Shown: in pieces, positions 18,201 through 37,625 of the stretch
How the letters are laid out: every line of letters starts with the position of its first letter
Position numbering within the stretch: the first letter of the stretch is position 1
IMG/VR virus record: IMGVR_UViG_3300012953_004257
Span: 1 to 37,626 of that record
DNA: 37,626 nucleotides
Reading direction: 5' to 3' (one strand)
Source of the DNA: a virus
Lineage: Duplodnaviria; Caudoviricetes
Notes under the pieces: model-generated
The model's database searches: none
Told to the model about the DNA's origin: nothing
What the model saw: only the letters and a program-made list of their open reading frames with translations
Position numbers and translations under genes: made by a program

Positions 18201-19401
18201 TGCTGAATCTTATAGGATGACCATTAGAACCTGCTTGATTAGATGCATCGGATTGGTTAAATTTAATTAAATAATTTGCTCTAACTTGAATATTTTCAGG
18301 GGCGAAATAATATTGTCCTGCTGTGAAAGGACCAAATTTTGCTGCATCAGTTCCAAAATCAATATAATATGGATTGATTGTTATAGGATCTCCACTAATT
18401 TTAAACTGGAATCCGTTAGAACCTAATACAACATCATTTGCTTGGAAAGGATCTCCTGTTAATAATCTAATGTATACTCTAGTAACAGTGCCAGAAGTTG
18501 TAACAACTTTAGCGATTTCACCTCTAGCAGTTCCAGAAACTTCATCAACAATTCTACCAACTTCAATAGCACCAAGAGTCTCATCTACTGCTGTTACATC
18601 AACAACTATATTTCCTGTTTCTACTTTAATATTCCAAGTATAAAGTTGAATATTTCCCCAATCAAATACACCATTGGAAAGATTAAATTCATTTATGATA
18701 TTCTTCGTTTGATAATAATAAACACCACTATCATTTACAGCATCATAAGTTGTTGTATTTTTTATGTAATCATATTTTACAGTATCTACAGAGAAATTTG
18801 TAGGTGTTCCTCCTGCTGTTCCCCATTCTGGAGTATGAAGTAAAGCACCATTTGCCATGACACCAAGTGCTTTATTCTTTTGAAATTCTCTTGTTCCTGA
18901 ATATGGAACATCTTTACCACCACGATAAATTATCGTATGATCAAAACTCCTATCTACAACATCTGTAGAACCACCTGGTTGTCTTTCAGTTAGAAAAATT
19001 TGAGATGGTTTAGGATGATTATCGGTAACTAGTCTAAGTCTATCAGAAGTAAACGTACCTACGGTAGAAGAATTAGGATGAGACTGCCATACTCTATTAA
19101 TATCAAATGATGTAACAACGTTTGGAGTTTCCTGTTCAGGAATAATTTGCAATCTTAAAGGATCGTATCCCTTACCTCTGTTTAGAACTCTTACATGAAT
19201 AATTCTTCCAGAATCAGAATCAATAATTGGATATAATAATGCTTCTGTATCAGGAGTTCCACAACCAGTTACAGTAAGACGTGGGGGATCAGTCGGGACG
19301 TATCCAGATCCTCCATTTATTACTCTGACCGCACGAACACCAAATATTTCATCAAATATCGGTTCAATTACAGCACCAGTTCCAGGAACAGTTCTTGCCA
19401 T
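15253..19401 (-). CDS. Virion structural protein with split YHYH-type domain, two cupredoxin-like modules and GxGY repeats (1382 aa)
   Basis: ORF track. ALGVMANGALL…HSQILGVSFDGYPIYGPWG…LDEFNGKFAVTPEYPNGTYAYF…YPY match the YHYH-domain pattern. HPIRF…YFHCAYHTHMAG is cupredoxin-like. Repeated GSGY-x-x-x-P-x-I-x-x-x-GGGG-x-GA units. Confidence 0.85.
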   Translation of the reverse strand: MARTVPGTGAVIEPIFDEIFGVRAVRVINGGSGYVPTDPPRLTVTGCGTPDTEALLYPIIDSDSGRIIHVRVLNRGKGYDPLRLQIIPEQETPNVVTSFDINRVWQSHPNSSTVGTFTSDRLRLVTDNHPKPSQIFLTERQPGGSTDVVDRSFDHTIIYRGGKDVPYSGTREFQKNKALGVMANGALLHTPEWGTAGGTPTNFSVDTVKYDYIKNTTTYDAVNDSGVYYYQTKNIINEFNLSNGVFDWGNIQLYTWNIKVETGNIVVDVTAVDETLGAIEVGRIVDEVSGTARGEIAKVVTTSGTVTRVYIRLLTGDPFQANDVVLGSNGFQFKISGDPITINPYYIDFGTDAAKFGPFTAGQYYFAPENIQVRANYLIKFNQSDASNQAGSNGHPIRFSTTPDGPLNQSPGALYYNSTGVSQAPSADYESIFAPLFLMNSDETANIYFHCAYHTHMAGYTGDEGYISLNTTSETYTPTNNYYVADFYQSDSNDPNTIDRSRYTDGHSQILGVSFDGYPIYGPWGYNSSGAVARETSSYRLRTTAELAGARPQVNTVSTVTYTVTISNGQFLFGGSRPSFLELDRGKTYVFNQNDASNDSQHLLISTTSDGWHGQNPVIIGNTANLYSGNGIKYYIDGSEVTYQSYLSGFNLASSREIRFTVPVNAPSALYLFAYTTAGHGIRTVQEGYVLGDLVEDYIYDSTVGTLDEFNGKFAVTPEYPNGTYAYFMTEDSSGNPVYPYAIGPKMYGTPLFEGATAPAQPTVFPTEAEGDVVLASDGSVSYIKMTKKGDNFFGPAKAKILGGQGTGALGTPTVQTVTGLALLGGGRSYATPPTLIFEGGGGQGAQGAAEIDTLGKVTSIAVTNSGEFYQEPPYILITGGGGIGAKAEATIAQGVITAINITDPGSGYTSVPNIIFTKLVTLKRKSRARQAFNSSNLYLTGLVKNVTASDSEIYVSSTDAFPGSGQILLNYETITYTSKAAGKFGGLTRGVNFNYDQRVILDAGQNDSSGVSTYAFNVGDRVIRKVENANNKVAKVYDWNPISRELLVTFEVDELAFIDGGIPSTEDAIVQFDGGVASSAPSGFLPHTVLTTTGSSIFLLTEPVSTLADRSFQDILPTAAGDGIADLDNTGTDYANQISLDGGIYNSLYGIEETQGGTNTTLFQVGDNVKDGSIPFKYATILTAGALSDGVEHTALLSITVDATNGNGQNYSVNEVVTGATSGVIGTVVSWDPNTSTLVVGSIVPFNTGNIAVGIAGYLYEFSHDSTVVDVLVQNPGTNYTAAPTVAFENTGDIQATGTAVLTAAGDQVASITINNGGYGIPQTVDGTYALHPTITFTNATGDTTGANASAQAILGGEDLVGNGGARYRIKSIDHQATVRS

Positions 19402-20660: not shown

Positions 20661-20668
20661 TATTTATA
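20661..20668 (-). promoter_or_regulatory. T4 late promoter, perfect TATAAATA, overlapping the stop codon of the giant gene
   Basis: Plus strand tatttata at 20661-20668. The TAA stop (20664-20666) lies within it, and it is 20 nt upstream of the ATG at 20640. Confidence 0.8.
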
Positions 20669-23600
20669 GGATCTCTGGATCAATTACTTCTTCACCATAC
20701 AGAGATAAATCAGGTGCAGTCCAATCATCAGGAACACTACTCTCAACTGTAACAGTTGGATTTTGATATCCAGATCCAGTTGCGCTTAGTTCAACACCCG
20801 CAACACCAACTAGTGCACGAATATTTCCATCAAAACCAGAGATAGAGTCAACACGAACTGTAGGTCGGGAAGTGTATCCTGAACCACCACCAGTTACCTG
20901 AACATTATTAATAAATCCAGATGTTAGAGCTGCAGTTCCGACAGCGTTCTGTCCAAATACAGATCCAAGATAATCAAATGTAATTAGAGAGTTAGACGAT
21001 TCAATAACCGCAACTTCTCTGTCTGAAGTCTCACCTTGAATATCAATAAAGTCACCAGGTTCAACTGGAGGAACAACTTCAGCAGCATCAACGTCCGCCT
21101 CAGAACCAACATAAGAGAAGGCAACGAATGTTGATCCAAATCTAGGAACTTCAGTAAAGATTATTCTAGAACCAACAATCTCAAAACCAATACCAGGTTC
21201 CTGAATAACACCATTCAATGAAACAATAATATTATTTTCAGGTCTGATTGTGCTTGACTGTACACCTTCAGTTAGAGTCAATGAGTAGAATACATCATTA
21301 CGTTTCAAGTTAAATGATTGACTCAATGAATCAAACTCGAAACTAATATCATCAAGTTGTCTTAGTTTACCAACGTAGAATCCTGTAAAGGATGCTCCCA
21401 AGTCAGGTGCTTCAGTAAACTGAATGGTATCAGAGAACGCTGTGTATGCATTAGTTGCACCAGGTGGTTGTAGAATACCATTGATAAAGATGAGCATGTG
21501 TCCTGCAGGATCAGGTAGATATTGAGTTCCATTATTCTGTGTGAGTTTAAATTGTGTTTGAACTCCATCAAATCCTCTAAATGAACGTTTAACACGAGCC
21601 TTAACATCTTCAACATTGAGAATCGCTGCAGCATAACTATCAGGACCTTTAATACCATCATTGTCAGTAAACGAACCAACAACTCCAGAGAGATATAATC
21701 TCTTATTCAAAACGACATCTTCAATATCTTGAACTCTTGCTGCTCCTGCACCTGCAGTTACAACAGATGTGGTGACTGTTGCATATCCAACAGGGAATGC
21801 AGTTCCTGTTCCATAATCACCAACAATATCACCATTAGTAATAGTTCCCTGAACAGGAATTACATATAAGAAGTTATTAGAGATATCTACTTCAGCAATA
21901 ATTGCGTAAACAGAAGTCTGTTGAACACCACCAACAACCTTATAAAGTCTATTACCCTCAGTAAATACATTCAAACCACTGATAACAGAAATACCAAAGC
22001 GAGTATTACCCGTAGAAGCAATCAAATCACCAACTTTAATATCTAAACCTGCATGCTTCTTAACATCAATAAACTTCCTAGAAGTTTGAGGATATACAAC
22101 TGCAGTTGTTTCAAATGTTCCATTTAGACTTGCAGTATCAACTGTCAACGTACCGCCAGTGTTATCTGTGACCGCTGCTTTATTTTGATAGAATGCTGTT
22201 GGTTGAGCAGTGTTACCACTTGTATATCCTTTGAATGGGATATTATTTACAAATTCTCCTTGAAGATCAATGATATGAACACGACTCTCAATAGCACTAA
22301 TCTGAGCAGTAGTAGAGTTAGATGCACCAACAACGTTATCAGTGATTGCCCAAGTTCCTGCGGTTACCCGAACATCAAGATACTTATAGTTTGTATCTTC
22401 GTAGAAACCGTATACAACACCCGTAACACCACCTGCTCCCTGTTTAGCAACAGTTTCACCCATTGTGTAAGGACCATCAGTTATACTGCCATCAATTCTA
22501 AATCTCTGATAAACTTGAACTACTTGTCCAGTATTTTCTGTAAGTGTTTCAACTTCAGCAGATGCATCACTGAGTAAACCATAGAAATAGTCAGCAGCAG
22601 AAACACCACCACTAATTCCAATTGGAACTTCTGGATTACCATATTTAATTGCAGGAACAGTTATAGCATTACTGGAAGTAACGGTTGTATAGTAAGTTGA
22701 TTGTGCTAATTGATTTCTAATAATATTTAAATGATAACGAATAAATCTTTGAATTGTAGATTTGTTATAATCTGATGCAAGAGTAGAATCATAGAACTTA
22801 TAGAAAGATGCAAGAGTTGAAGGAGATGTTAAAGTATTGTCAAGTGCCTTACCCATGAAATCTTCAAGATTGTTTAATGCAAATGTCTTGATGTTATAAT
22901 CAGTATTTGAATAGAATAATTGACCAGATGCTGCAGTATAAGGATCAAGTGCACCCTTATTAAGTTTATGACCCCAAACTAATATTCCATCAGTCCCATT
23001 ACCTGCATGAACTAAAGCACCTGATGAACTTCTAACATATACTTTTGTGCGGAATTCAGAGAATCCAAATCCAAATGTTGTTGTAATATAAGCACGATAC
23101 CATCCGTTACCATGAGGAATAACTCCAAAGGCATCTACATTTATAGAAACATCGGGTGTAAAGATAGAACCTTTAGTTCCATTTGATAAATCAAGATCAA
23201 AGAATGCTCTTTGACGTGTAGCAAGACCATCATCAAGTGCTAGGTATATACGAGTCTTATCATACCCACCTGCCTTAACAAAGATTGAATATGTGTATGT
23301 CTGAGTAGCTGCATCACCTGCAGAACCAGTATCAAATGTTTCAGTTCCAGAGTCAAATTTTACAGTATCACTATCAAAAGTTTCAAAAGAACTTAGGGTA
23401 AAGTTTTTATATTTTTCATGCTCAGTGTTATTAGTAGAAGGAATTAATTTATCTGCTGTTGTAGATTCATCAGGAGCAGCTGCGACATTTAATGTAGTAG
23501 TTGTTTCTGATGCAGTCCAACCTGTAGCATTAAGATTTTCTGGATCAGGGAAAAGGTTTGTAGTAGAAACAAGACCTTCAATATTAGATGTAAGAGTTCT

Positions 23601-26600
23601 TGCTCTCGAAAGAATCTTAACATTAGTTGGATTATTATACCAGTTATAAGAAGAACTTACACCACTAGATGCAATGGTTCCTGTCGCACCACTAGGTGCA
23701 GTTAGAGTATTGGTAGCTACCCATGCAGTGCTTCCAAATGCACCAACATAAAGAATCTTAGCATCTGCATCCCACTCAAGAACAGTTGCTTCTCCACCAC
23801 CACTAGAAGTTACAATTTCACCAACAGCAAACGTACCTGAACTTGCACTCAGTGTAATAGTATATGCTGTAGATTTATCGTAAGTATTAGTTGTAATAAT
23901 ATCATGAACAATATCAGAAACAACACCTTCTACGAAATCTTCTTGTGCATCAGTCCATGCACCAGATCCAAATTGTGCATTAACTAGAGATTGTAATTCA
24001 TTAGTATAGTAATTTTCATTAAATTCAATTTGTTTAGCAGCAGATCTTGCTTCTTTTCCACCAGGTGAGAATATCTCTTTAACAACTTCAATTAAATCTC
24101 TCCATGCATACACAACATCATTAATAGCGGTAGTTGAAACAGAATCTCGATATGCTGTTTCATCAGTATACTGTGCTGCATATTGAGTAGAACCTGCAGA
24201 ATCACCATTAGTATACAATCCATTTTCAATCGCATACTCACCGAGAATACCTACTTGTTCAATAGCATATAATGCTGCAGGGAGAACATTATCAATAGTT
24301 TGAATATTGAGAACAGCAGTTAAGTAAGTGCTTGCCTCTTGAATTGCACTATCTGTTCCACCAGCTTGTAAATCAGAAATAAGAGCAACTATTAGATCTT
24401 CAACATCTAACTCATCATTGTAAGAACCTGCATTATAATTAACACCGTTTAGAACGTATCCAAGATATTGTAGAACTAAACCATTAACTTCTTCTTTAAT
24501 GAATTTCTTGTTGAAATATGCTCTATCTGCACCTGTTGCAAAATCTGCACCTGTTGGAGCAATAACATCATTAATTGTTGTAATAAGAGTATCAACAGCA
24601 GCAGTAACAGTATCAAAGTAATTTGAAACTCCTGCACCAGTAACACCCCAGTTACCAACAACAATACTATTAGTATTAGTGTCATCTAAGGTTCCTAAAA
24701 TTGCTTGTTTTGCATAATATGCAAGTCTTTCATGAGCATAAACTGATTGGAATACTTGAAGACGAATATAACGTAACCCACCATTGCTATTAATATAGAA
24801 TCCAACACCTGATATAGTATCAATATTACCACCTTCTTGAATATCGTTTGCTATAGCATCTAAAAATAGACCTAAATCAGTTTTACAACGAATAGTTCCA
24901 TCAGTGCTTGCACCACTTTGGTTTCTAGGCATATCCTGTGCTAGTTCAGGATAACGCTGTAGCATATCATACGCTGCTTTATCAACAATCGGTGTGCGAT
25001 TAAGTCTAATTAAGTTTGCAGCATCTCTAAAGCGATACTGAGTATCAGGACCAATTTGATTAGTGTAAGAAACATCAGTTCCTGCATCATGATAATCAAC
25101 TGATAGACTTGTCTCAATATAAGCATCTACTGTTCCACCAACAAACTCATACTGAGGTTCAACTTTAGTAACGCTTGCTAAATGATCAACAGGTGTTGCA
25201 GCAGAAGCGTTTGTAATTGTATCTGTAATAATATTAATTAAGTTACCAACAGTGGAATATACATCAGCACAGTCACCAGTGGTGTAATTTAATTCAGTGA
25301 CAGAATTAGTTACTGCGGATACAAATGTATGAGTATATTGATCTTGTGCTCCTGATTTACCAACATTAACTGTAATTGATGTGTTTGCAACAACAGCAGT
25401 GACAGCTAGAACTGCCTTTGCAGCAGGATCAGTTTTTCTTGGATATGCAGTAGGACGATCATTACCATCTTTGTCACAAGTAAATGTGATACCACCGATT
25501 GCAATATTAACTATTGATGATGTGGTCATTGAATGAGTTCCAATGGTCAATACCATTTCACCAGTAGCAGAATTGTAAGTTGCATTAGTAGGTGTAAACT
25601 GATTTAATGTAGTGTAAGAAGAATCAGTAATTGAAGTATCAGTAAATTGAGTTAGACCATGATCACCTTGAATTGGCCAAAGAGCATTAGTAATGACATA
25701 CTGAAGCATATCATCAACTTTTTCATAAGCAAATAATGTTTCTTTAACAGCAGGTTCAATCTGTGCAATAGCAACTGGATTTACAGTTCTATCAACATAG
25801 TATGATGCAGCATCCCAAATATGATTATTAGATCCATTACGAAGATCTTGAATGATTGCATTCAATGTATCACGAATATCATCTTCACAGTTAATACCTT
25901 CATCAGCAATAACTCCTCCTGTGACTGCAGATACAAATGTATGTAAGTAGTTACCACCAGTAACAACTGCGTTTGCTGCAGCAGATACAAAAGTATGAGC
26001 GTATTGATCTGCTTGAGCAGAAACACCAACGTTAATAGTTACAGTTCCACTTTGTTTAATTAGTGCACCTGAAGTTGCAGAAACAAATGCATGTGTAGAA
26101 GTATCACTAGATGTTCCAATATCAATAGTAAATGTATCAGCATCAACAACGGTTACTGCAACCCACTCACCTCTGATAGGATCAGTCTGTCTTGGATATG
26201 TGTGGTTTGTAGCATTACTATCGTAAGCACATGTAAATGTTAATGAATTATCAGCAATTTGAATTCTATTGCCAGTAGATAATCCATGGTTACCACTTGT
26301 ATTGACTGTTAAAATACCTGTTGTAGGAATATATGCAGCACTACTAATATCTTGTGTAGTTGTTCCGACTGCAGTTACATCTAGAGCAGTATTATACGCA
26401 GGATCAGGAGATCCATCGCCAGCAGTTGCACGAGGATAAGTCTTCTGTGCACTGTTGCTATCTTGTGTGCAAGTAAATGTGAATGAATTTGCAGTTAATC
26501 TAATTTGTGTTCCAACATTAATTGTATGATTAGCAATGGTCATTACAAATGCACCAGTTGCAGGATCGTACGTTGCGTTAGTTGGTTGGAAATTAACTAA

Positions 26601-29600
26601 AGGAGAAGGTCCGACATTAACTGTTAAATTAGTAGTGCTAGAAGATACTATTGGAAGAGCAACATCTTTAGATGCAGGATCTGTTGAACGAGGATATGTC
26701 TTATTGGCAGTATTACTATCCATTGCACAAGTAAATGTTAGTGCATTATCCTTAATCTTAATTCTATCTTTCTCAACAGTAATTGCATTAGTTAAAGCAC
26801 TTACGAAAGTATGAGATGTTGTATTTGATGAAGTTCCAACATCAATTGTAAATGTATTTGCAGTCGCATTAGAAACTGTCAACCATTGACCTGCAACAGG
26901 GTCAGTAGAACGAGGATATGGATGATTTGTAGCATTACTATCTTCAGCGCATGTAAATGTAATACCACCAACTTTAATATTAATTCTCTTACCATTTGTC
27001 ACACCGTGACCAATCTTAGTAATAGTCAATATACCTGTTGAAGGATTATATGCAGCAGACTGAGGTGTAAATTGTCCACCATTAGTAAATGTGTTTCCAG
27101 TCACTGTCATTGACAATAGACCAGTTACAGCATCATATGTTGCGCCAGTTGGAGTGAAACGAGTTCCTAGAATAACAAGTTCTGGATATCTCTGTCTCAT
27201 TTGATATACAACTTCTTTCTTAATGAAATCAATGTTACCTTCAATATTATCTGCAGCGTTATAGTATCTGTGAGATTTGCCCGCAAATCCTGCAGGAGCA
27301 CCAGTCTTTCTAGAAGTTTCTAGAATTGCATCATTATTGAAGTATTCATCCTTAGTAAATGATTCACCACCAGACCAATCATCTGTATGCTGTTGTCCTT
27401 CAACACCATCAAAGTGGATGAGTAGTTTTGTATTTGAATCACCTTGGAAAATACCTGTAGGTGCAGTAAATGCTGCAGTATAACGAGCAGTTGTAGAAAC
27501 TCTAAACTCATCAATATATCCGATAAAGTGATTATTACCTGCAGTATCATCACCAATTCTAATTGGTTTATTTGTTCCATAGTTATTACTATCACTATAA
27601 GAACTACCATCTTGAACACCATTAACAAACATCTTAGTAACAGATCCTGATTTGCTAATAGCAACGTGTGTCCATTGATTTGCAACTATAGTTGCTGTTC
27701 CTTGAATTACTATAGCACCATTAACATAAAACTCAAGATTTGCAGCATCAAGATATAAGTAAGGAGAAAGTTCAGTAGCAGTAGTTCTGAAATCAAATAT
27801 AGATCTTGTTCCTGCAGAAACTGTAATAGGTCTAATCCAACACTCAACTGTAAATGCAGCAGTTCCAAATCCAAATTCATCAGAGGCCGCGACTGCAAAA
27901 CTTTCATCAAGAGGAACTATACCTACGTTAACTGTTATTGTAGTTGATGTAACTGCAGTGATACTTCGGTTAGAACCAGACGCAGGGTCTGTGGAACGAG
28001 GGTACGTTTTAGTAGAAGTATTACCATCTTGTGCACAGGTAAATCCAATACTATTATCAGCAATTAAGACTGTGTTACTTGTTGTTAGAGAGTGATTTCC
28101 AATTTCAATTACTAAATTACCTGTCAATCCATCATAGGTAGTTCCTGTAGCAGCAGTGAACGAACCAGTTGCACCTCCTCCTGCAGTGATGCCATCTGTA
28201 ACTCCACTCACAAAAGTATGTGCTTCATTACCAGGTGAAAGACCTAAACAAGCATCACCAAATTTCTGATTAGTTGCATTGAGATATGCATTAGTAAATG
28301 TGAATGTATGATAATCTCCACCATTTCTAAGAGATCTACCAATCTTACCAACGTATACAGTTTTTCTTGCTTGGTTTGCACCAATAACTTCTGCCTTTGT
28401 ATCACGAGTTCTAATAATTTGACCAGGAACAAATAGACCAGTTCCAACTGTATCCCTATAAGTAAGTCTACGAACTACAGCACCTTCACCTGCAGCAAAC
28501 TCACCATCATTGTTACCATACTCTAATTTGTAGTTACGGATAGTTTCATTTGATAAATCTCCTGAAGCAGTATCATATGGAATAACATAATTATTAATTT
28601 CCTCATTAGCAGGGAATTTAGTATTGTAATCAGTAAGATTATCTGTAAAGTCAACAATTCTTATTTGAGATGCTGCTATGTCATCAAGAACAACGTTAGG
28701 ATAAGTCTGAGATGTAATTCTGTTGAATAAAAGACCAAAGAAAGAAGATCCTTCAGATATATTAACCTGACTAATAAACTCTTGAGTTACAGGATCTTGA
28801 TATGTTGAAGTTGCTGTAATACGAGCAACAACACCAGACTGTGCACCAATAATAACTTCATTTAATTGAATATCATATAAACCAGGTTTAGACTGATATG
28901 TTCCAGTTGTCTTACTTAAAGTCAGTGAATTATTAACAGAAATCTGAGTTCCATATAAAGGAATATCTTCTTGTTGAGATACAGCAGTAGTTCCAGATTG
29001 TGCTCTAGTTACACCAAGAGTTGTAGATTCAGAACCTTGAGTAATAGTGTTAAGTAAGAAAATTTCAGAACCAAACTGATAGTTTTGACCAGTAGTAAAT
29101 GTTCCTGCAGGAACAACTGCATCTGCAACAGTATTATCAGTTTTATATGCAACTGCTTCAAAGGAAGTAGTAGAAGGTCCTATTGTATAACGTAATTGTG
29201 CTAACGGTGTTTCCTGACCTTTCTGTAAGTTAATTGATTCAACTTTAGCAACATCACCTTGGAAATCAGTAACTGTCTCACCGAAAGTAAATAGACCGAT
29301 GTTACTTACCGCTGTTACACCATTAGATGCAGCAACAGTAGAGGCAAACCCTGTTGCACCAACTGTTGCAAGTTCACTAGGAGTAAATGTAGTTCCTGTA
29401 GTGAAGAAACCAAATACATCATTTCCTACAACACTAGTAACAGTCAGACGATTTGCTGATGCTGTTCCAACCATTTCCATACCTGCAGTAGGGAAAATAC
29501 CACTAATATTATCGAATGAAACCTTAACAGTGCTAATTTGTTGAATAGTAACATTAACATACTTAATACTAGCAGGAGGTTGAGGAGGTTCATTGAAGAC

Positions 29601-32600
29601 TATTGAATCACCTTGAAGATTGAAAGATGATCCAGGATTCTGAACAACACCATTTAAAACAATCATTAACTGATTAGCATTAGCAACTAAAGTGCTTCCA
29701 TTAACTGTTAATGGGAATGCGATTCTCTCTCCATCAAATAGAGTAGAAATATCGTCAATACGTTGAACAACAGAAGTTAATATGTTTTCTGAAGAAGTAA
29801 GTCTTTTCTGACGGAAAAGAATTTCTGTATTATTAAATTCTGAGTAAACTGGTTCTACTAGAGCAAAACTTTGAATATTAGGAACTATTGCATCTCTAGC
29901 AAGTTCAACAGATTTAGTAAGTTGGAAATCAGTTTCTTTATTAGGAACGAATCCATAATCAGAAAGATTTAATTCACCAAATACTTTGAATGATGCAGGG
30001 TGTACGTTTTTAATAAGAATATCTTTCCATTCACCAATAGAAACAGCAGACTTAATAGCATAGGAGAAATCTTGATAATAGTAAGAGTCTTGAATCTTCT
30101 CGATAATTTCAGAAGGTTTTCCAACATCATCAATAAATTGACCTGTAGTTTTAGTAAGAGAACCTATCTCAAGAACACCTTTAGCAATATTCAAATCACT
30201 GATCGTACCAGAAGATTTAGAAATAACACCAGTTACTCTCTGTCCTGATATAAAGTCACCAGTATAATCTACAATTTTAAGAACTCTAGGTCCTATCTGC
30301 CAACCATTATTTGTAGAAACATAACCTTGTGCAGTTGCTGTTTCTAAAGTATCACCTTGATAAACAAGTTCACCCTCTAAGAAGGTAGATGTGATAACGT
30401 TTGCTGTAGCACCACCACCAAAAGATTCAGTAAGTAATTGTTGACGACCTGATCCTGCGTTAACATAAGAAATAGCATCTCCTAAAGTAGCATTTGCAGC
30501 AGTGATAGCGAGTTTTAACTGATCAGTTTCAAGAGAGTTTGCAGAACCTGTAATAGCAAAATAAGTTGTAGTTCCACTTAAACGACCAGTAGCACCTGCA
30601 GCAAGTGGATACTCTGCTCCATCTCCAGTATCAACAACATTTAATGTAACCTGAGAACCGTTAGCAATACCATGAGGGAATGCAAATTGTAGAAGACCTA
30701 AGTCAAGGTTTACAACATAGTTAAAAGAAGATCTAAGAGCAACTGTAGGAGTAGAAGAATAACCTGCACCTGGATCTTTTACGATTATTTGATCTAAACG
30801 TCCATTCTTAATTGTTGCTTCAGCAACAGCACCAGTTCCTCCACCACCAGTAATAACAACTGCAGGTGCCTGTGAATATCCAGAACCTGGATCGGTAACT
30901 GTGATACTGTCTAGAATACTGGTAGAAGTTAACTGAGCATTTATTGGGAATGTAATTTCAGGGCGTAGTGTATAATCATGAGGATAATCATAACCAAAGT
31001 TATTATTCTTAAGTTTCTTAATCTTACCAACTTTATCACCTTGAGTAAATATAGACGCACCAGTTCCAGTCGCAGGAATAACAACTACTAATTCTGCACC
31101 AGAACCAGTTAAACCAGATCCAAGAATACCACTAATTGATTCAATATCAATTGTTGCTGTAGTATAATTTTTACCAGGTGATGTGACATTAACCTTATTG
31201 ATTTGACCAGGAATAGTTACTCCTGCGTCATCTGTTCCATCGGCAACAATAATTTCTACAAATCCACCCTCTCCATCACCACCAATAGGAACACCAGTAT
31301 ATGTTCCAACAGCATATTCTGTGCCTGGTGTATTGATAGCAACTCTTTCAATTTGTCTAGTAGATTGAATACCAGTAACAACAGGTAATCTTGTATAGAA
31401 ACCACCAGGATTAACAATACGAATAGCACCAATAGAACCAACTGCCTTAATAGAACTGGTCATATAACTTGCTTGATTTATATCAGCAGCTGCCTCTGGT
31501 TCATTAATAAGAGGGAATTTAATTATATCAGCACCACGAGTAATTGTAGCACCTTGAATAGATTCAACTACGAACGTACCTGTATAGGGAGAGTTAGTAA
31601 CATCAAGATAACTTCCACTATCAACTGGAGAATCAGCACCAGTTCTAGAAGGATCAAAGTAATAAGAAATATTTGTAACAATACCAGTATCAATTTTAAA
31701 TTTTACAGTAGGATTGGGATTTCCTGCACCTGTAACACCTGGTATTCCAACACGTTCAATAGAGTTGAATGAATATTCTAATTTATTTAAGTTATCTTTA
31801 GAGAATGATAAGTTTCCACCTGCCATTGAGGAATGACTGACATCAAACAAATATTGATGTCCATAATACATTTTAAGAACTGGAGACTTAACATATACAC
31901 TAACATTAGCAGGAGTAGTTGCAGGAGCAGTTAATGCAGCAGTAGGAAGTTTATATACAAATTCTCTAGCACTTACAATTTGATCAACTGCAAATGCACC
32001 ATCATATTCATCATATGTTGTGGAACCAATAGTTTGAGTAGGGTTACCATCAATATAAAGCATATCACCTACAGATAGGTAATGATTTGTTCCAGTGATT
32101 ACATATACTTGATCACTATTTGTAACTGCAGTAACTTGTAAAATTTTAGTTAAGTTTGCAATTACAGTAATCTCTTCAACAGCTGTTAGATTAGTAATTT
32201 GTGCTGTAGAATATGCAGCGTTAAAACTAATATCAGAAGAAGTAATTGTAACTACAGATCCAACAATGAATGTTGAACCACTTGAAGATATCTTATCAAT
32301 TCTAATTGAATAATCAATATCACTATGAGGTTTGAATTTTGCAAAAGTATCAAGATTTCCTGTGCAAGTAGCAATAGTAAAGGTCGCATTAGCACCACCA
32401 CCAGTAATAGTAATTGTATCTCCAATTTTGTAACCAGAACCAGGAGTATCAATTGAAACAGAAGAAACATTACCACCTGATGCAACAAAGTCAACAGTCA
32501 ATCCTGTTCCAGATCCAGTCGTTGTTGTTGCAACATTATCACCAGTGTTAGCATAACCAGTTCCTGCTGCAGTCACTCCGCTTAGTGTTGCAGGAATATC

Positions 32601-35600
32601 TGCACGAGTTCCATCTAAATCAAAATGATCTAGATTTAAATCGAATGTGCCAGGTGTTGTATTAACTACATTTGCAAAATTATAACCTTGAATTTCATTA
32701 ACATCAGCAGGAATAGGACCTACAATACCATAAGTGGATTGCTCACTAAATTGTTCAGTTACTAACTGACCTGTATTTAAATCATCAGACCAAGAATTAT
32801 TATTAACAGAAAGATATATCTTATTGGTAGCAGTATCTTTAGAAATAATATAACCGCTATTGACAAATGTTCCAGAATTATTGTTTAATCTTAATTTAGT
32901 TCCTACAGTGAAGTTAAATGCCTGATTGATAGTAAGTGCTTGAATATTATCAATCTTAGATGTAGTAGTTGTTTTAAAATAATATCTGTCTCTAATAATA
33001 GCAGTAACTTTAAGTTTACGAGAACCTGGTGAAGGAACAGTTGCGGTTCTAGAACTCCAAATATCTTGCTTATATGTAAGTGATTCAGTTCCTGCACTCA
33101 TGCTAGTTGTAGAATCATCAAAGTCTAAATTTTGGAATCCTGCATCACCTAAAGCAAAACCAGTGCTAGTAACAGTCAGTGATACACCTGTTACTGGAGT
33201 AACACTAGTTCTGATGAATCCAACTTGAGTATTAGTTTGAACAGTTTGAGTTCCAATTCTTGCAGCATCAGCAGGTTTGTCAATCTTAAGACCCCAACCT
33301 TCATAATCAATATAATCATATTTTGCAAGATTAGTAGTGAACCATGCAGAATCAGTCCAAGTGTATGCAAAGGCAAATGCACCTGTAGTCGGGAATGCAG
33401 TAACATCACTAGGTACGCTAGGAGTGATTGCTCTATTTCTAAGTCTGAGATGATCAATAAAGTATTGACCTTGCTCATTCTTGCGGAATGAACCTGCTGT
33501 AGTGTCTCTACCAGTAATTTGACCAAAGAGAAGATCTTTACCGTTTAATGCTGTATTAGCAACACTTCCTGTAAATGCTTGAAGACCATTTACATATGCT
33601 GTAAATTGATTACCTTCTTTCTTAAGTCCAATATATTGCCAAGTATTATCAGCAAACATTGTAGTTAATGTAGACTGCAGTGCAGATCCTGCAGCATTTA
33701 TCTTAGTAGTATTATTTGTAACTACTAATTCTAGTTTTCCACTAGAAACATCATAGTATAACCAAAGACCACCTGTGGTGCCTTCAGCATCACCAATAGA
33801 AACTAATGTATGTTGTGTTTGAGATAATGTTTGAGAAGAACTTGCTTCTTTATAAAGTCCAAATTCAATAGTCCAATTCTCATTTAATTTAGTTCCTAAC
33901 TGAGCAGAAGTAATTTTAAGATGTGAATTTACCCAAGTAGCATTAGATCCTGCAGGATTGTAACCATAAATCTTAGCAACATTATCAGCATAAGTGATAG
34001 AGTTATTAGTTGATGTAGATGTTAAAGTATAATGACCAGTTGTATCAGCATTAGATCCAGATGTGAATGGGAAAATAAATTCATTTCTATTCCAAGAAGT
34101 TTGTCCATATAAATGGATATCACCAGAATTATCAACAGCAAGACTATTGACAGTAATACCTTCAATATTGTTAAGGTTAAATTGTTGTGTAGTATGATTC
34201 TTAATTACACCATCATATCCAATCTTAATACACTCTGCTGTACGCACTGAATCAGTTGTTGCAACTTTACTAATTGCTACGTTAAGATCACCAAATATAT
34301 CAATAACACACTTACTTGCTGCAGTAATTGATCCATCAGCAACTGCATATCTCTTATTATAAATTATATCTCCAGTTGTATTGAATTTACCTACCCAGAA
34401 ACCAGTTGTAGTTGTATTGTCAGACTTAAGTCTAGTTGTAGCAGTAATATACGCTTCATTAAACTCGTCCATTGCAAGACTTGTATTTAAGAAAGAATAA
34501 ATTGTGCTACTAATTTGTTTTATATAAGGAATTGTAATTACACTAGTTCCAACAGTTGCCTTACCAAAACCAACGTCAACTGCAGTTGCTGAAGTGCTAG
34601 ATGCTATTTCCATGGAGAAATACACATCAGTTCCATTAACTACAATGTCAGTAATTTTTTCAGAACTACTTGCTGATGTAAGTTTTCTCTTAATAGCAAA
34701 AGTTCCTGTTGTATCAACCAAAGCAATGAAAGCATCATATGGATTAGCAGAGTTAGTATTTGTATATCCACCAATAACAAATCTAGTATCAGAATACTTA
34801 GTAAGTGCAGTAATTTCATCTGCACGAGTGGATCCAGAAATACCAGCATATGCTTTCTGGAAATTAAGTGTTGCACTAAGACCATTCTCAGCTTCAACAT
34901 ACTTAACTAGAATAACATCTGGGTTATATGCATTTAAAATAGAAGAATTAGGATAATTTCTACCTGCAATCCAAATATTTTTATTATCAACATATATTTT
35001 TAAGAATTCTGCATCATCTAAACCACCAGATAGTTCTAAAGTTGCTTCCCATTCTTTTACACCAGTTGCAGAAAGTTTTGCAACAAAAGCAACTAAATTG
35101 TTAGCTGTATCGTGGGTTTTACCACAAATATACGCTTCCTTATTATCATTTACAAAAACATCATTTACTGATACATAATTTTCATTTTCAATTACAGAAA
35201 CATAATAATCTGCCTTTTTGAATACTTGAGGATGTGATAAAATAACCCTAGGATTAGAAGTATAACCAGATCCAGAATTTATGATATTAACAGTATCAAT
35301 AGAACCTACAGAGGTCACAACTGCTTGAAGTTCACCGTCAGTTCCATTTCCATCGATTATAATTGATGGGGGAATATCAGTGTTGTAACCAGATCCAGTT
35401 TGATCAATTTGAATCTCTTCAATACCTTTGTATTGACGTACGACATAAGACTTATTAGTATTGTCCATTACAGGAGTGTAATCAACAAATACAGTATCTC
35501 CTGCGATTAAATTATGTGGATTAGTAGTTTTAAGAAGACCATAATTTACACCACTAGTATTTTCAAAACCGTAAGTTAATATTGATTCACCTTTAATTCT

Positions 35601-37625
35601 AGAAACACGAGCAGAAACACCAGAACCATCAGTATCAGTGTTATCGAATATTAATCTATCATTAACCTGATAACTTGTTCCTGAGTTTTCAATCGTAAAT
35701 CCTGTTACTGATGCATCTTCAAATTTAGTAATCGTTTCAACTTCAATATCAACTTTAGAATCAAGTTTTACTTTAGGGAAGTAATCAAAAAGTTGTAATG
35801 GAGATTCTTCAAAAACCTGATCTGGATCAGCAGTTTCATCTGCATCAATAATACCACTTCTATCTTCATCTTCTATATCAAATAGTAGTATATCACCATT
35901 CTCCAGTGTTAGAGCGTTTGTAGAGGCATTTGGTGCCCTCTCAACGTCAATATCAACATTCTCATAAGGATCACGATATCTAACAACACCAGTAGGAATA
36001 TTTTGCTGAACAGCATCAGCACTTAAGTTCCAAGTATCTACAACAGAGTTAAAACTAGGACCCATAATATATGGGAATAATGGATTACCATCTTCAGTAG
36101 AATCAATAGTTACAAAGTAACAATATCTACCCTGAGGATAATCAGGTGTTTTACAGAAACGTCCGTTATATTGATCAAGATCACCTAAACCAAAAACATA
36201 CTCATAATCTTCTACAAATTTACCTGCAGATTCTTCACTAAGAAGAGGACCAGCAGTTCTTACAGGAGTTGGATTTGTTTGAGTATTTAATACAAGATTT
36301 AACTTAAGACGATATGATGTGTTTAATTTATTAACTGCAGAGTTTTGATCAGTAGGATCAGAATAACCGTAAGGACCATAAATTGGGTTACCATCAAATG
36401 CCCAACCTATAATAGGTGAGTGTGCAAGTTGAGTTTCTTGTTCTTTAATTGCTCCCGCAGTATTTTCAAATAAATTATCACCAAGAATATACCTTAATCT
36501 TTGTGGGTTAGATATGTGTGCATATTCACCACCATACTGGTTATTATACCCTGTAAATACTCCACCCTTCGCAGAGTCTAAAGTAGATGTTTCTTGTAAG
36601 TTATAAGTCCATTGGAATACATTTGCTGTAAATGTTGCACTAGAACCAACAGAGTTTAAATTAATTAATGTCGTACCTTGAATATATCCAATACCTCTGT
36701 TAACAATAGTGATACTAGTAACTCTTCCTGCATTTTCACCATCAACATCGATAGTAGCACGAGCAACAGCACCAAAACCTTCTCCCTGAATATCAATCGT
36801 AGGAGCAGTTGTATATCCTGAACCTGCAGAGATAATAGCAATAGAAATGATACGACCATTCTGAACAATTGCTTGAGCAACAGCACCACTACCAGAACTT
36901 AGTGTGACAGTAGGATTTGAAGTATAAGATGCACCACCAGAAGAAACAGATACAGATTGAATAGGACCACGAACAGATGCAGTTCCAGTAGCACCAGTTC
37001 CTCCACCACCAACAATAGTAATAGTGGGTTGAGATGTATATCCTGTTCCACCATCATTAATTAAAACTCTAGATACAACACCCTTTGTGATAATAGCAGT
37101 TGCTGCAGCACCAGATCCGCCACCACCTGCAATAGAAACAAGAGGAGACGAAGTATATCCAGATCCACTTGCAGTTACAGTAATTTCACTAACAGATCCA
37201 TTAACAGTTACAGTAGATGTGGCACCTGTTCCACCTCCACCAGTAATTGTGATATTTGGAGGAGAAGCAGCATCATAACCTGAACCTGCATTAGAAATAG
37301 TAATACCAGTAACAGCACCAAATGTTTTCTTGATTGTTGACTTATAAGACCATATAGAAACACCGTTTACCCATGTACCGATAGGACCAGATACAATATC
37401 ATTTTTTGTGGAAATTGTAGTTGATACTAGTGGGAAACGATTTAATTTACGTTGGTTGCCAGGTAGAAGTGCTGAACCAGGAAAAGGACCTATGTTGTAG
37501 TTGGGTATACCTGTTGAGGCAACATAAACATAATTATCATTAAAGAAAGAGTTTTGTATATTAGTTGTGTAAGGACCAATCGCATTTAAAACAGGTGTGT
37601 CTGTAGATTTACCTTTATTAAGGTC
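20664..37625 (-). CDS. gp7: Giant gp7-like baseplate wedge initiator / multidomain structural protein; partial, 5' end beyond the right window edge (>=5653 aa)
   Basis: The ORF-track frame (20664..36065) continues without a stop to the window end in my manual translation (DLNKGKSTDTPVLNAIGPY…PLFPYI-MGPSF). It contains KIQDSYYYQDFSYAIKSAVSIGEWKDILIKNVHPASFKVFGE (~29975-30105), a motif typical of cyanophage gp7-annotated proteins. It also has YHYH-like, beta-propeller-like, two LamG-like, helical-repeat and jelly-roll segments. It lies upstream of gp8. Confidence 0.8.
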   Translation of the reverse strand, partial: DLNKGKSTDTPVLNAIGPYTTNIQNSFFNDNYVYVASTGIPNYNIGPFPGSALLPGNQRKLNRFPLVSTTISTKNDIVSGPIGTWVNGVSIWSYKSTIKKTFGAVTGITISNAGSGYDAASPPNITITGGGGTGATSTVTVNGSVSEITVTASGSGYTSSPLVSIAGGGGSGAAATAIITKGVVSRVLINDGGTGYTSQPTITIVGGGGTGATGTASVRGPIQSVSVSSGGASYTSNPTVTLSSGSGAVAQAIVQNGRIISIAIISAGSGYTTAPTIDIQGEGFGAVARATIDVDGENAGRVTSITIVNRGIGYIQGTTLINLNSVGSSATFTANVFQWTYNLQETSTLDSAKGGVFTGYNNQYGGEYAHISNPQRLRYILGDNLFENTAGAIKEQETQLAHSPIIGWAFDGNPIYGPYGYSDPTDQNSAVNKLNTSYRLKLNLVLNTQTNPTPVRTAGPLLSEESAGKFVEDYEYVFGLGDLDQYNGRFCKTPDYPQGRYCYFVTIDSTEDGNPLFPYIMGPSFNSVVDTWNLSADAVQQNIPTGVVRYRDPYENVDIDVERAPNASTNALTLENGDILLFDIEDEDRSGIIDADETADPDQVFEESPLQLFDYFPKVKLDSKVDIEVETITKFEDASVTGFTIENSGTSYQVNDRLIFDNTDTDGSGVSARVSRIKGESILTYGFENTSGVNYGLLKTTNPHNLIAGDTVFVDYTPVMDNTNKSYVVRQYKGIEEIQIDQTGSGYNTDIPPSIIIDGNGTDGELQAVVTSVGSIDTVNIINSGSGYTSNPRVILSHPQVFKKADYYVSVIENENYVSVNDVFVNDNKEAYICGKTHDTANNLVAFVAKLSATGVKEWEATLELSGGLDDAEFLKIYVDNKNIWIAGRNYPNSSILNAYNPDVILVKYVEAENGLSATLNFQKAYAGISGSTRADEITALTKYSDTRFVIGGYTNTNSANPYDAFIALVDTTGTFAIKRKLTSASSSEKITDIVVNGTDVYFSMEIASSTSATAVDVGFGKATVGTSVITIPYIKQISSTIYSFLNTSLAMDEFNEAYITATTRLKSDNTTTTGFWVGKFNTTGDIIYNKRYAVADGSITAASKCVIDIFGDLNVAISKVATTDSVRTAECIKIGYDGVIKNHTTQQFNLNNIEGITVNSLAVDNSGDIHLYGQTSWNRNEFIFPFTSGSNADTTGHYTLTSTSTNNSITYADNVAKIYGYNPAGSNATWVNSHLKITSAQLGTKLNENWTIEFGLYKEASSSQTLSQTQHTLVSIGDAEGTTGGLWLYYDVSSGKLELVVTNNTTKINAAGSALQSTLTTMFADNTWQYIGLKKEGNQFTAYVNGLQAFTGSVANTALNGKDLLFGQITGRDTTAGSFRKNEQGQYFIDHLRLRNRAITPSVPSDVTAFPTTGAFAFAYTWTDSAWFTTNLAKYDYIDYEGWGLKIDKPADAARIGTQTVQTNTQVGFIRTSVTPVTGVSLTVTSTGFALGDAGFQNLDFDDSTTSMSAGTESLTYKQDIWSSRTATVPSPGSRKLKVTAIIRDRYYFKTTTTSKIDNIQALTINQAFNFTVGTKLRLNNNSGTFVNSGYIISKDTATNKIYLSVNNNSWSDDLNTGQLVTEQFSEQSTYGIVGPIPADVNEIQGYNFANVVNTTPGTFDLNLDHFDLDGTRADIPATLSGVTAAGTGYANTGDNVATTTTGSGTGLTVDFVASGGNVSSVSIDTPGSGYKIGDTITITGGGANATFTIATCTGNLDTFAKFKPHSDIDYSIRIDKISSSGSTFIVGSVVTITSSDISFNAAYSTAQITNLTAVEEITVIANLTKILQVTAVTNSDQVYVITGTNHYLSVGDMLYIDGNPTQTIGSTTYDEYDGAFAVDQIVSAREFVYKLPTAALTAPATTPANVSVYVKSPVLKMYYGHQYLFDVSHSSMAGGNLSFSKDNLNKLEYSFNSIERVGIPGVTGAGNPNPTVKFKIDTGIVTNISYYFDPSRTGADSPVDSGSYLDVTNSPYTGTFVVESIQGATITRGADIIKFPLINEPEAAADINQASYMTSSIKAVGSIGAIRIVNPGGFYTRLPVVTGIQSTRQIERVAINTPGTEYAVGTYTGVPIGGDGEGGFVEIIVADGTDDAGVTIPGQINKVNVTSPGKNYTTATIDIESISGILGSGLTGSGAELVVVIPATGTGASIFTQGDKVGKIKKLKNNNFGYDYPHDYTLRPEITFPINAQLTSTSILDSITVTDPGSGYSQAPAVVITGGGGTGAVAEATIKNGRLDQIIVKDPGAGYSSTPTVALRSSFNYVVNLDLGLLQFAFPHGIANGSQVTLNVVDTGDGAEYPLAAGATGRLSGTTTYFAITGSANSLETDQLKLAITAANATLGDAISYVNAGSGRQQLLTESFGGGATANVITSTFLEGELVYQGDTLETATAQGYVSTNNGWQIGPRVLKIVDYTGDFISGQRVTGVISKSSGTISDLNIAKGVLEIGSLTKTTGQFIDDVGKPSEIIEKIQDSYYYQDFSYAIKSAVSIGEWKDILIKNVHPASFKVFGELNLSDYGFVPNKETDFQLTKSVELARDAIVPNIQSFALVEPVYSEFNNTEILFRQKRLTSSENILTSVVQRIDDISTLFDGERIAFPLTVNGSTLVANANQLMIVLNGVVQNPGSSFNLQGDSIVFNEPPQPPASIKYVNVTIQQISTVKVSFDNISGIFPTAGMEMVGTASANRLTVTSVVGNDVFGFFTTGTTFTPSELATVGATGFASTVAASNGVTAVSNIGLFTFGETVTDFQGDVAKVESINLQKGQETPLAQLRYTIGPSTTSFEAVAYKTDNTVADAVVPAGTFTTGQNYQFGSEIFLLNTITQGSESTTLGVTRAQSGTTAVSQQEDIPLYGTQISVNNSLTLSKTTGTYQSKPGLYDIQLNEVIIGAQSGVVARITATSTYQDPVTQEFISQVNISEGSSFFGLLFNRITSQTYPNVVLDDIAASQIRIVDFTDNLTDYNTKFPANEEINNYVIPYDTASGDLSNETIRNYKLEYGNNDGEFAAGEGAVVRRLTYRDTVGTGLFVPGQIIRTRDTKAEVIGANQARKTVYVGKIGRSLRNGGDYHTFTFTNAYLNATNQKFGDACLGLSPGNEAHTFVSGVTDGITAGGGATGSFTAATGTTYDGLTGNLVIEIGNHSLTTSNTVLIADNSIGFTCAQDGNTSTKTYPRSTDPASGSNRSITAVTSTTITVNVGIVPLDESFAVAASDEFGFGTAAFTVECWIRPITVSAGTRSIFDFRTTATELSPYLYLDAANLEFYVNGAIVIQGTATIVANQWTHVAISKSGSVTKMFVNGVQDGSSYSDSNNYGTNKPIRIGDDTAGNNHFIGYIDEFRVSTTARYTAAFTAPTGIFQGDSNTKLLIHFDGVEGQQHTDDWSGGESFTKDEYFNNDAILETSRKTGAPAGFAGKSHRYYNAADNIEGNIDFIKKEVVYQMRQRYPELVILGTRFTPTGATYDAVTGLLSMTVTGNTFTNGGQFTPQSAAYNPSTGILTITKIGHGVTNGKRINIKVGGITFTCAEDSNATNHPYPRSTDPVAGQWLTVSNATANTFTIDVGTSSNTTSHTFVSALTNAITVEKDRIKIKDNALTFTCAMDSNTANKTYPRSTDPASKDVALPIVSSSTTNLTVNVGPSPLVNFQPTNATYDPATGAFVMTIANHTINVGTQIRLTANSFTFTCTQDSNSAQKTYPRATAGDGSPDPAYNTALDVTAVGTTTQDISSAAYIPTTGILTVNTSGNHGLSTGNRIQIADNSLTFTCAYDSNATNHTYPRQTDPIRGEWVAVTVVDADTFTIDIGTSSDTSTHAFVSATSGALIKQSGTVTINVGVSAQADQYAHTFVSAAANAVVTGGNYLHTFVSAVTGGVIADEGINCEDDIRDTLNAIIQDLRNGSNNHIWDAASYYVDRTVNPVAIAQIEPAVKETLFAYEKVDDMLQYVITNALWPIQGDHGLTQFTDTSITDSSYTTLNQFTPTNATYNSATGEMVLTIGTHSMTTSSIVNIAIGGITFTCDKDGNDRPTAYPRKTDPAAKAVLAVTAVVANTSITVNVGKSGAQDQYTHTFVSAVTNSVTELNYTTGDCADVYSTVGNLINIITDTITNASAATPVDHLASVTKVEPQYEFVGGTVDAYIETSLSVDYHDAGTDVSYTNQIGPDTQYRFRDAANLIRLNRTPIVDKAAYDMLQRYPELAQDMPRNQSGASTDGTIRCKTDLGLFLDAIANDIQEGGNIDTISGVGFYINSNGGLRYIRLQVFQSVYAHERLAYYAKQAILGTLDDTNTNSIVVGNWGVTGAGVSNYFDTVTAAVDTLITTINDVIAPTGADFATGADRAYFNKKFIKEEVNGLVLQYLGYVLNGVNYNAGSYNDELDVEDLIVALISDLQAGGTDSAIQEASTYLTAVLNIQTIDNVLPAALYAIEQVGILGEYAIENGLYTNGDSAGSTQYAAQYTDETAYRDSVSTTAINDVVYAWRDLIEVVKEIFSPGGKEARSAAKQIEFNENYYTNELQSLVNAQFGSGAWTDAQEDFVEGVVSDIVHDIITTNTYDKSTAYTITLSASSGTFAVGEIVTSSGGGEATVLEWDADAKILYVGAFGSTAWVATNTLTAPSGATGTIASSGVSSSYNWYNNPTNVKILSRARTLTSNIEGLVSTTNLFPDPENLNATGWTASETTTTLNVAAAPDESTTADKLIPSTNNTEHEKYKNFTLSSFETFDSDTVKFDSGTETFDTGSAGDAATQTYTYSIFVKAGGYDKTRIYLALDDGLATRQRAFFDLDLSNGTKGSIFTPDVSINVDAFGVIPHGNGWYRAYITTTFGFGFSEFRTKVYVRSSSGALVHAGNGTDGILVWGHKLNKGALDPYTAASGQLFYSNTDYNIKTFALNNLEDFMGKALDNTLTSPSTLASFYKFYDSTLASDYNKSTIQRFIRYHLNIIRNQLAQSTYYTTVTSSNAITVPAIKYGNPEVPIGISGGVSAADYFYGLLSDASAEVETLTENTGQVVQVYQRFRIDGSITDGPYTMGETVAKQGAGGVTGVVYGFYEDTNYKYLDVRVTAGTWAITDNVVGASNSTTAQISAIESRVHIIDLQGEFVNNIPFKGYTSGNTAQPTAFYQNKAAVTDNTGGTLTVDTASLNGTFETTAVVYPQTSRKFIDVKKHAGLDIKVGDLIASTGNTRFGISVISGLNVFTEGNRLYKVVGGVQQTSVYAIIAEVDISNNFLYVIPVQGTITNGDIVGDYGTGTAFPVGYATVTTSVVTAGAGAARVQDIEDVVLNKRLYLSGVVGSFTDNDGIKGPDSYAAAILNVEDVKARVKRSFRGFDGVQTQFKLTQNNGTQYLPDPAGHMLIFINGILQPPGATNAYTAFSDTIQFTEAPDLGASFTGFYVGKLRQLDDISFEFDSLSQSFNLKRNDVFYSLTLTEGVQSSTIRPENNIIVSLNGVIQEPGIGFEIVGSRIIFTEVPRFGSTFVAFSYVGSEADVDAAEVVPPVEPGDFIDIQGETSDREVAVIESSNSLITFDYLGSVFGQNAVGTAALTSGFINNVQVTGGGSGYTSRPTVRVDSISGFDGNIRALVGVAGVELSATGSGYQNPTVTVESSVPDDWTAPDLSLYGEEVIDPEIL
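25295..28220 (-). repeat. Six copies of a ~95-aa module (A-x-Y-x-x-x-TG…H…FTC-x-x-D-x-N…YPR-x-TDP…T-I/V-N/D-VG…HTFVSA) in the giant protein
   Basis: FTC…YPR cores: FTCAQDGNTSTKTYPR, FTCAEDSNATNHPYPR, FTCAMDSNTANKTYPR, FTCTQDSNSAQKTYPR, FTCAYDSNATNHTYPR, FTCDKDGNDRPTAYPR. Six H(T/A)FVS strands. Confidence 0.92.
27400..28290 (-). other. LamG/concanavalin-A-like lectin domain within the giant protein (interrupted by an inserted module)
   Basis: QKFGDACLGL…FGFGTAAFTVECWIRP…NQWTHVAISKSGSVTKMFVNGVQ…FIGYIDEFRVSTTARYTAAFTAPT…TKLLIHFDG follows the Laminin_G_3 pattern common in phage virion proteins. Confidence 0.8.
33430..33900 (-). other. Second LamG-like domain within the giant protein
   Basis: NWTIEFGLY…TWQYIGLKKEGNQFTAYVNG…YFIDHLRLRN. 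Confidence 0.65.
34090..35190 (-). other. Probable beta-propeller within the giant protein
   Basis: Roughly 55-60-aa periodic blades: DVFVNDNKEAYICG…AFVAKLSATG, IYVDNKNIWIAG…DVILVKY, RFVIGGYT…DAFIALVDTTG, FWVGKFNTTG, LAVDNSGDIHLYG. Confidence 0.6.

Follow-up and report, generated by a model that had tools for sequence, protein, structure and literature searches.

A giant baseplate gene with four nested modules

The sequence analysed was a 37.6-kb virus record (37,626 nucleotides, taken as one window, to which all coordinates given without a locus name refer). It comes from a T4-like cyanophage, a near relative of the isolates P-RSM4 and S-TIM4, and belongs to the baseplate region of its genome. 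A single open frame on the minus strand (20664-37625), still open at the end of the window, coded for at least 5653 amino acids; gene order and weak wedge-core matches (see below) led us to treat its product as the gp7-position protein. Four copies of one module were located at 27164-25899 (minus strand) and were arranged as A1[B]A2[C1[D]C2]A3, in the following segments:

27078..27164, minus strand: A1, opening hairpin of the root barrel A (alignment)
26769..27077, minus strand: B, intact barrel in site 1 of A (alignment, single-module model)
26604..26768, minus strand: A2, middle of barrel A, FTC..YPR..VNVG (alignment)
26364..26603, minus strand: C1, the opening three quarters of barrel C, inserted at site 3 of A (alignment)
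26049..26363, minus strand: D, intact barrel in site 2 of C, at depth 3 (alignment, fold search)
25953..26048, minus strand: C2, last two strands of barrel C (alignment)
25899..25952, minus strand: A3, closing strand of barrel A (alignment, separate-chain folding)

Four landmarks were defined per module: 1, the opening Y-x4-TG hairpin; 2, FTC..YPR; 3, VNVG; and 4, HxFVS. Their order along the nest was 1 1 2 3 4 2 3 1 2 1 2 3 4 3 4 4, and a strict stack parse closed four of four copies with no violations and a depth of 3, whereas 2000 shuffled orders closed 0.42 copies on average (p 0.0005), a weak null given that a plain tandem order would beat the shuffles as well. What tells nesting from tandem is that plain 1234 runs were present in only two of the four copies. 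Re-joined A aligned over its full length with the intact copies B, D and E (the last described below), with 45/101, 42/102 and 44/102 identities (z 18.7-20.1), and so did re-joined C (41/102, 42/103 and 49/106, z 14.7-19.5). A collinear tandem was rejected, as four consecutive blocks scored 70-140 against E, versus 199.5 for re-joined A and 223.5 for re-joined C. An assembly artefact was also ruled out, because the isolate genomes of P-RSM4 and S-TIM4 matched all 458 residues of the nest query at 94%. We hold the nested-domain architecture to be very probable.

A preliminary description of this stretch had proposed the same nesting and the alignment of re-joined A and C with intact copies, which succeeded end to end; its segment boundaries all lay within about 10 nucleotides of the alignment boundaries, and the order of the closing strands, HAFVSA (D), HTFVSA (C) and HTFVSA (A), was as it had claimed. 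The module was longer than the approximately 95 amino acids given there (100-105 measured), and two copies besides the four central ones had been missed, namely U and E:

27906..28244, minus strand: copy U, circularly permuted barrel, closing strand first, in a LamG loop (alignment)
27483..27893, minus strand: LamG domain, portion after copy U (PF13385, E 5.8e-23)
25284..25610, minus strand: copy E, intact barrel in another loop, further on in the helical unit that holds the nest (alignment)

In the natural circular permutant U, the original module ends were joined, closing to opening strand, by a few Gly-rich residues; this is direct evidence at sequence level for module ends that are adjacent, in agreement with the juxtaposed termini supposed in the preliminary description.

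Predicted fold and distribution of the module

Cys, Pro and His were invariant in the 96 intact copies aligned (96/96), accompanied by a near-invariant Asp and a further His. The single-module AlphaFold2 model had a predicted local distance difference test score (pLDDT) of 97.1 and a predicted template modelling score (pTM) of 0.88. Its fold matches included the UBA1 FCCH domain of ubiquitin E1 (Z 8.1, root mean square deviation (rmsd) 2.7, 79 aligned, model range 1-105), a head-to-tail chain of phage FCWL1 (Z 7.7, rmsd 2.5, 78 aligned) and the phi92 endosialidase barrel (Z 7.6, rmsd 2.3, 82 aligned), all at a Z of about 8, which is borderline and says nothing on function. The module is predicted to be an FCCH/endosialidase-like beta-barrel with adjacent termini; its extra Cys/His hairpin had no counterpart in the matched folds.

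The FCCH and endosialidase Pfam profiles were weakly matched by 7/96 and 6/96 members (best E 0.0014 and 0.0067), Atlas likewise weakly, copy B gave nothing against Pfam at E 0.01, and no family for the module or the nest was found in Pfam and NCBIfam. Two sequence matches in the PDB were discarded: the MET receptor (E 0.46, a chance match) and iota-carbonic anhydrase (E 0.0012, confined to 40 residues and with no fold support). HABAS/hybrid-motif domains were absent among the fold matches listed, which does not exclude them. The module family comprised 764 cluster representatives at E 0.001 and was present in cyanophage wedge, neck and tail-fibre proteins, at up to 13 places per phage record; all the phage records matched (320/320) bore the label Synechococcus, Prochlorococcus, cyanophage or marine.

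Predicted structure of the nest

The nest interrupts a helical host domain, which was found on both of its sides:

27165..27272, minus strand: host globin/phycobiliprotein-like domain, helices before the nest (nest model, fold search)
25611..25898, minus strand: host domain resumed, helix from an invariant Cys (C-E-D-D), then more helices (fold search, alignment)

The nest model (536 residues, 25 sequences; the alignment was made without L028, L041, L072, L051 and one duplicate, and with six rows shortened) had a mean pLDDT of 80.9 and a pTM of 0.62. Ten-residue blocks had a pLDDT of 72-95 over residues 41-450, split pieces included, and the strand pattern of the intact copies recurred in the split copies. 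In the fold search, residues 1..532 matched ApcE as one helical domain (Z 9.3, rmsd 3.2, 93 aligned), a match tied with colicin pore domains and below the mark of about 13 for helical bundles; other phycobiliproteins and globins also matched. Since this range matches one domain, the helices that flank the nest come together in the model, and the nest would form a closed loop: the host domain is predicted to close around it, the chain being back at its starting point after A3. From this closure and the linker length, we infer strand pairing within A and within C. When A1+A2 was folded with A3 as separate chains, the score was 0.52, versus 0.02 for the best control, which is weak support: the mark was reached by 116/157 solved and 2/215 mismatched pairs, and scores of 0.60 or less were those of 18/157 and both mismatches. 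The runs agreed in at least 80% of contacts, with a partner pLDDT of 60-64.

In a strand-swapped alternative, nesting would be confined to the sequence: closing strands would be built into adjacent barrels instead of their own, and the product would be an interdigitated rod or clump, as in Si3 of the cyanobacterial RNA polymerase, rather than a clean tree. Against this, the host helices lie 5 residues from A1 and A3 and are closed in the model, and the junction linkers are too short for a crossed path. Collapsed and intact spacings also agreed, fully at site 3 (median 14 vs. 13) and almost at site 1 (36 vs. 33). Such swapping has been reported for recursively inserted HABAS domains (PMC11515920), the closing strands of the nest are all homologous, the separate-chain test cannot tell A3 from a sister strand, and the pTM of the model is 0.62; on balance we regard strand swapping as improbable. 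The tree built from one polypeptide, put forward in the preliminary description, agreed with the sequence nesting and with the predicted model. No structure of this virion was found; we infer that the tree projects from the baseplate.

Copy number and nesting among relatives

Copy number was compared among homologous cyanophage genes, as the preliminary description had advised (counts are of loci, not genomes, and several loci are one contig twice). The 68 rows at the nest loop comprised 35 empty, 26 four-copy and 1 five-copy loci, and 6 with mis-anchored flanks that were scored neither way. Empty orthologues had a 4-residue spacer where the window has 425 residues, and the four-copy architecture was conserved among sequences of 62% to 95% identity. 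That copy number at this loop goes straight from 0 to 4 fits the arrival of a block, but may be a sampling effect. At the copy E loop the relatives had 1, 2, 4 or 8 copies, or many more, the range being 1 to at least 20; at the LamG loop (64 scored loci), permutant U was present in 54 and the loop was empty in 10. Strictly balanced nests reached 8 copies and a depth of 5 (L023, L057), and two larger ones, with 11 copies (L044:7535-15472) and 12 copies (L058:5933-18799), were balanced by hand reading at depth 7 and had additional insertion points, located in the first and in the last strand.

Other arrangements were also observed. In L006 and L030 the permutant cassette was also present at the copy E loop, where it preceded an intact copy, and inserts of 1589-2711 residues with many barrels were found at that loop in L054, L110, L120 and L121. 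Residues 270-4000 of P0001 (4764 amino acids) contained a four-barrel nest several times at a spacing of about 465 residues; this protein had no gp7 core motif, and its C-terminal part carried phycobiliprotein-like C-x-x-D repeats. The gp7-position protein ORF104 of S-SCSM2R had one canonical copy (L123:14850-15800), seemingly inserted in a divergent sister barrel that in turn lay within another one; this hints at a second subfamily of nesting modules.

Growth of the nest

Guests were inserted at nearly constant offsets: at site 1, 29 on the left in 24/26 and 28 on the right in 25/26; at site 2, 19 on the right in 24/24; and at site 3, 17-18 on the left in 30/30, these counts including many close orthologues and not being independent. 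Junction words were common to different lineages. The nearest neighbour of a module had the same guest site in 74% of cases, vs. 31% with shuffled labels (57 representatives below 70% identity, a figure that orthologues inflate in the same way). In the module tree, copy D clustered with a site-2 guest from L023, where the nest concerned occupies another loop (64% identity, Shimodaira-Hasegawa-like approximate likelihood ratio test 96, same junction), and in P0001 an entire four-barrel nest was repeated as a unit. Because the insertion points are fixed and the junctions shared, spread by the copying of host-guest cassettes is favoured, with moderate confidence, over a fresh insertion each time.

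Growth could have proceeded as follows. As the barrel ends are adjacent, a barrel could replace a turn of 2-4 residues in another barrel without breaking it, and rare founding insertions would first have created a few junctions. Recombination among the many similar copies in T4-like cyanophages would then put an entire sub-tree where one barrel had been. This takes two crossovers, the first within the opening part of the module and the other within its closing strand, and leaves the brackets balanced, while a single crossover between nested copies would give an unfinished barrel. In most segments synonymous codon changes equalled or exceeded non-synonymous ones, which corresponds to purifying selection.

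The occurrence of the module in several hosts (LamG, the globin-like domain and itself) and in several virion genes, at as many as 13 places in one phage record, would also be expected of an autonomous mobile element, intein-like or acting at the DNA level, that targets its own copies. However, no terminal repeats, terminal inverted repeats or target duplications were found at the module copies, which were only 60-77% alike in DNA; their guanine-plus-cytosine content was in line with that of the host gene, there was no Pfam match to splicing or nuclease domains, and the permuted copy was stably inherited. A mobile DNA element or intein is thus largely refuted, and we give it a very low probability. 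The idea in the preliminary description that the module propagates into its own loops stands in so far as guests do lie inside copies; autonomous self-insertion left no sign, and the fixed junctions point to cassette copying.

Gene context and the host domain

The other features of the giant gene were the following:

20664..37625, minus strand: giant gp7-position baseplate protein, 5653+ amino acids, start beyond the window (PHROG 701 "virion structural protein"; gene order; 6603 amino acids in P-RSM4)
29934..30164, minus strand: gp7-type wedge core motif (Pfam Baseplate_wedge, PF23786, below the cut-off; gp7 as top PDB matches)
24531..25088, minus strand: next helical repeat, an uninterrupted paralogue of the host domain, phycocyanin-alpha-like (PDB and PF00502 matches)

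The gp7 assignment of the preliminary description was supported by gene order and by weak wedge-core matches. The P-RSM4 orthologue PRSM4_106 (6603 amino acids, "structural protein") immediately follows gp6 (PRSM4_105). In the PDB search with the wedge core motif, gp7 took ranks 1 and 2, weakly (E 0.065 and 0.15), and PF23786 matched the motif at E 0.0005 (20 bits, under the cut-off of 27) and was matched in 10/10 members; a single-sequence search with the wedge core gave no match to gp7. Downstream of the giant gene were gp9-like, wedge, gp8, DUF4815 and Mtd_N genes. YHYH domains (PF14240) were found both in the giant protein (29064-37625, minus strand) and in a wedge protein of 1382 amino acids (15253-19401, minus strand), and the giant protein had a GTA spike-fibre-like domain (NF048003) near its end.

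The preliminary description had placed the nest in an "alpha-helical repeat"; the surroundings were indeed helical, and more exactly a globin/phycobiliprotein-like domain according to the model, the fold search and the paralogue matches. The next repeat matched C-phycocyanin alpha in the PDB (E 0.027), 21 of its 23 matches being phycobiliproteins or derivatives, and its Cys (in C-K-T-D) was aligned with the bilin Cys of C-phycocyanin alpha; the PF00502 match (E 0.0033) was below the cut-off. The host Cys was invariant in 21/21 empty-site orthologues and was followed by E/T-D-D, which is not the bilin motif C-x-R-D. The empty-site host profile reached phycoerythrin only at E 0.29, with IMP dehydrogenase ranked above the phycobiliproteins, and adds little. 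We call the nest host domain phycobiliprotein-like, by its predicted fold, and not a member of that family. After copy E (25176-25292, minus strand), a helical unit ended in a helix starting G-D-C, whose Cys was kept in L006 and L023, and which resembles the second bilin Cys of phycocyanin beta. At 23826-25088 (minus strand) the protein continued with another two to three helical repeats, of which the first was the phycocyanin-alpha-like one with C-K-T-D, and the second lacked the Cys and had no Pfam match.

Possible function

Our best guess, by analogy with related virion proteins, is that the nest serves passively as an appendage for multivalent adhesion or as a spacer, and that a metal probably stabilises it. 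More tentatively, the barrels would give multivalent low-affinity contact with host surface glycans, and a stabilising metal would be bound by the invariant Cys and His together with Asp or another His; an adhesion role as such is conceivable, at somewhat below even chances. The module-bearing ORF104 of S-SCSM2R has been reported in the virion proteome (PMC12801897), the K1F barrel has a sialic acid site and discriminates hosts (10.1101/2025.10.06.680778), and FCCH domains on siphovirus tails and tail tubes are outward-facing (PMC13576161).

A neutral or purely structural accretion, that is, tolerated bulk or a metal-stiffened strut with no part in host recognition, would account for the 35 loci wholly without a nest and for the independent variation of the nest and copy U (in L010 only the nest is present, in L078 only U). 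This explanation, which we think possible but doubtful, has to face the maintenance of the four-copy architecture across the whole identity range with mostly synonymous change. A nest of 1.3 kb is, in addition, carried in a packaging-limited genome. The virion relatives of the fold, moreover, are outward-facing (PMC13576161) or glycan-binding (10.1101/2025.10.06.680778).

The conserved Cys, His and Asp and the further His are what a metal-capturing barrel would need, whether for iron (a "Ferrojan horse", as hypothesised for tail fibres) or for zinc, with nesting multiplying the metal sites on the virion. The second His was present in 25/37 terminal vs. 7/20 host copies (Fisher p 0.026, copies not independent), but four of the six window copies did not have it, and the metal site is putative. 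Trimeric fibres reportedly carry a His-x-His repeat, from which the module motif differs. Metal capture is considered unlikely.

Taken together, the following reading is the one we prefer and regard as fairly probable: four modules, predicted FCCH/endosialidase-like barrels, are nested as A[B][C[D]] in one helical-domain loop of the gp7-position protein and would form a branched, host-facing adhesion or spacer appendage, grown by recombinational cassette copying. Several points weigh against it. The strand swapping of HABAS domains, the nest pTM of only 0.62, the borderline fold Z and the non-independence of the offset and nearest-neighbour counts have been mentioned; the whole-nest fold search gave one alignment per entry, with every barrel match on D. 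The module tree was an unfinished quick tree of 105 columns. At least six insertion points were present in relatives, and therefore fresh insertions do happen; no 1-, 2- or 3-copy state was seen in the 68 rows at the nest loop. The automatic parser balanced 96/243 locus clusters (51 of them single copies) and, in 150 listed proteins, 9/137 multi-copy clusters (5 of them plain tandems), the unbalanced clusters being cut off, permuted or with landmarks missed; given this low rate and the plain tandems, the family is not uniformly shown nested. The second His was replaced by Lys in A, C and U and by Ala in E, and this makes a fixed Cys-His-His site for metal less convincing.

A wider generalisation, which remains speculative, is a "tree grammar" of cyanophage baseplates: one barrel and a few inherited junctions, reshuffled by recombination, would give branched single-chain adhesion appendages of variable reach and valency on phycobiliprotein-derived domains; tree shape would tune host capture, and the four-barrel nest would be the smallest branched unit in cultured phages. 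If the tree does bind host glycans, a host-capture device would be named in abundant ocean viruses. With several loops open to guests and a tolerance of permutation, the barrel is also a natural scaffold for branched single-chain design.

Comparison with known systems

T4 gp7 (1032 amino acids) resembles the window protein in that its gene directly follows gp6 and in the weak match of the wedge core motif; the window protein is about six times longer and has LamG, YHYH, globin-like and barrel additions outside the T4 gp7 matches. Phycobiliprotein subunits (PF00502; C-phycocyanin alpha, ApcE) have the globin-like fold that the model predicts for the host domain, and the Cys of the paralogous repeat aligns with their bilin Cys, whereas the host domain has C-E-D-D instead of C-x-R-D, matches weakly and holds a 420-residue nest just before the Cys. 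The E1 FCCH (PF16190) and endosialidase (PF12195) beta-barrels, the best fold match, are likewise small barrels with adjacent termini that occur as inserted or appended domains, and on virions they are exposed at the surface. The module differs from them in about 25 extra residues (the FTC..YPR hairpin and the closing HxFVS strand), in its invariant Cys and His and in an identity of 9-18%, below Pfam significance. We know of no FCCH or endosialidase barrel that nests in itself.

The preliminary description had taken the architecture to be undescribed; the principle was already published for Si3 of the RNA polymerase beta' subunit (RpoC2) of cyanobacteria, which consists of recursively inserted HABAS/hybrid-motif domains (PMC11515920; PMC13114784), with eight domains at six levels in Prochlorococcus (PMC13114784). 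A 2026 survey of 48,551 insertion events has the cyanobacterial RNA polymerase (six levels) as its showcase, and "phage" and "viral" are absent from its main text. No description of recursive self-insertion in phages or virions was found in the literature covered, which mostly excluded subscription papers; the supplements of PMC13114784 could list viral cases.

Recursive self-insertion is rare, and in these phages it is variable among living relatives: one loop may be empty or hold four or five copies, and nests at other places reach 12 copies at seven levels. Tree growth and folding are thus open to direct study; P-RSM4 and S-TIM4 are cultured, and a nest of only about 420 residues is small enough for structure determination and a practical test case. 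As in Si3, a small all-beta domain family lies in loops of its own copies at more than one level. The nest differs in its fold match (an FCCH-like barrel, with HABAS absent among the matches listed) and in belonging to a virion protein, not an enzyme. The window nest is also smaller, with four copies at depth 3, and in the phage family, where relatives reach 12 copies at depth 7, even closely related members differ greatly in the number of copies and in the shape of the tree. Recursive self-insertion is thus known as a principle, and the phage virion nest is a variant of it.

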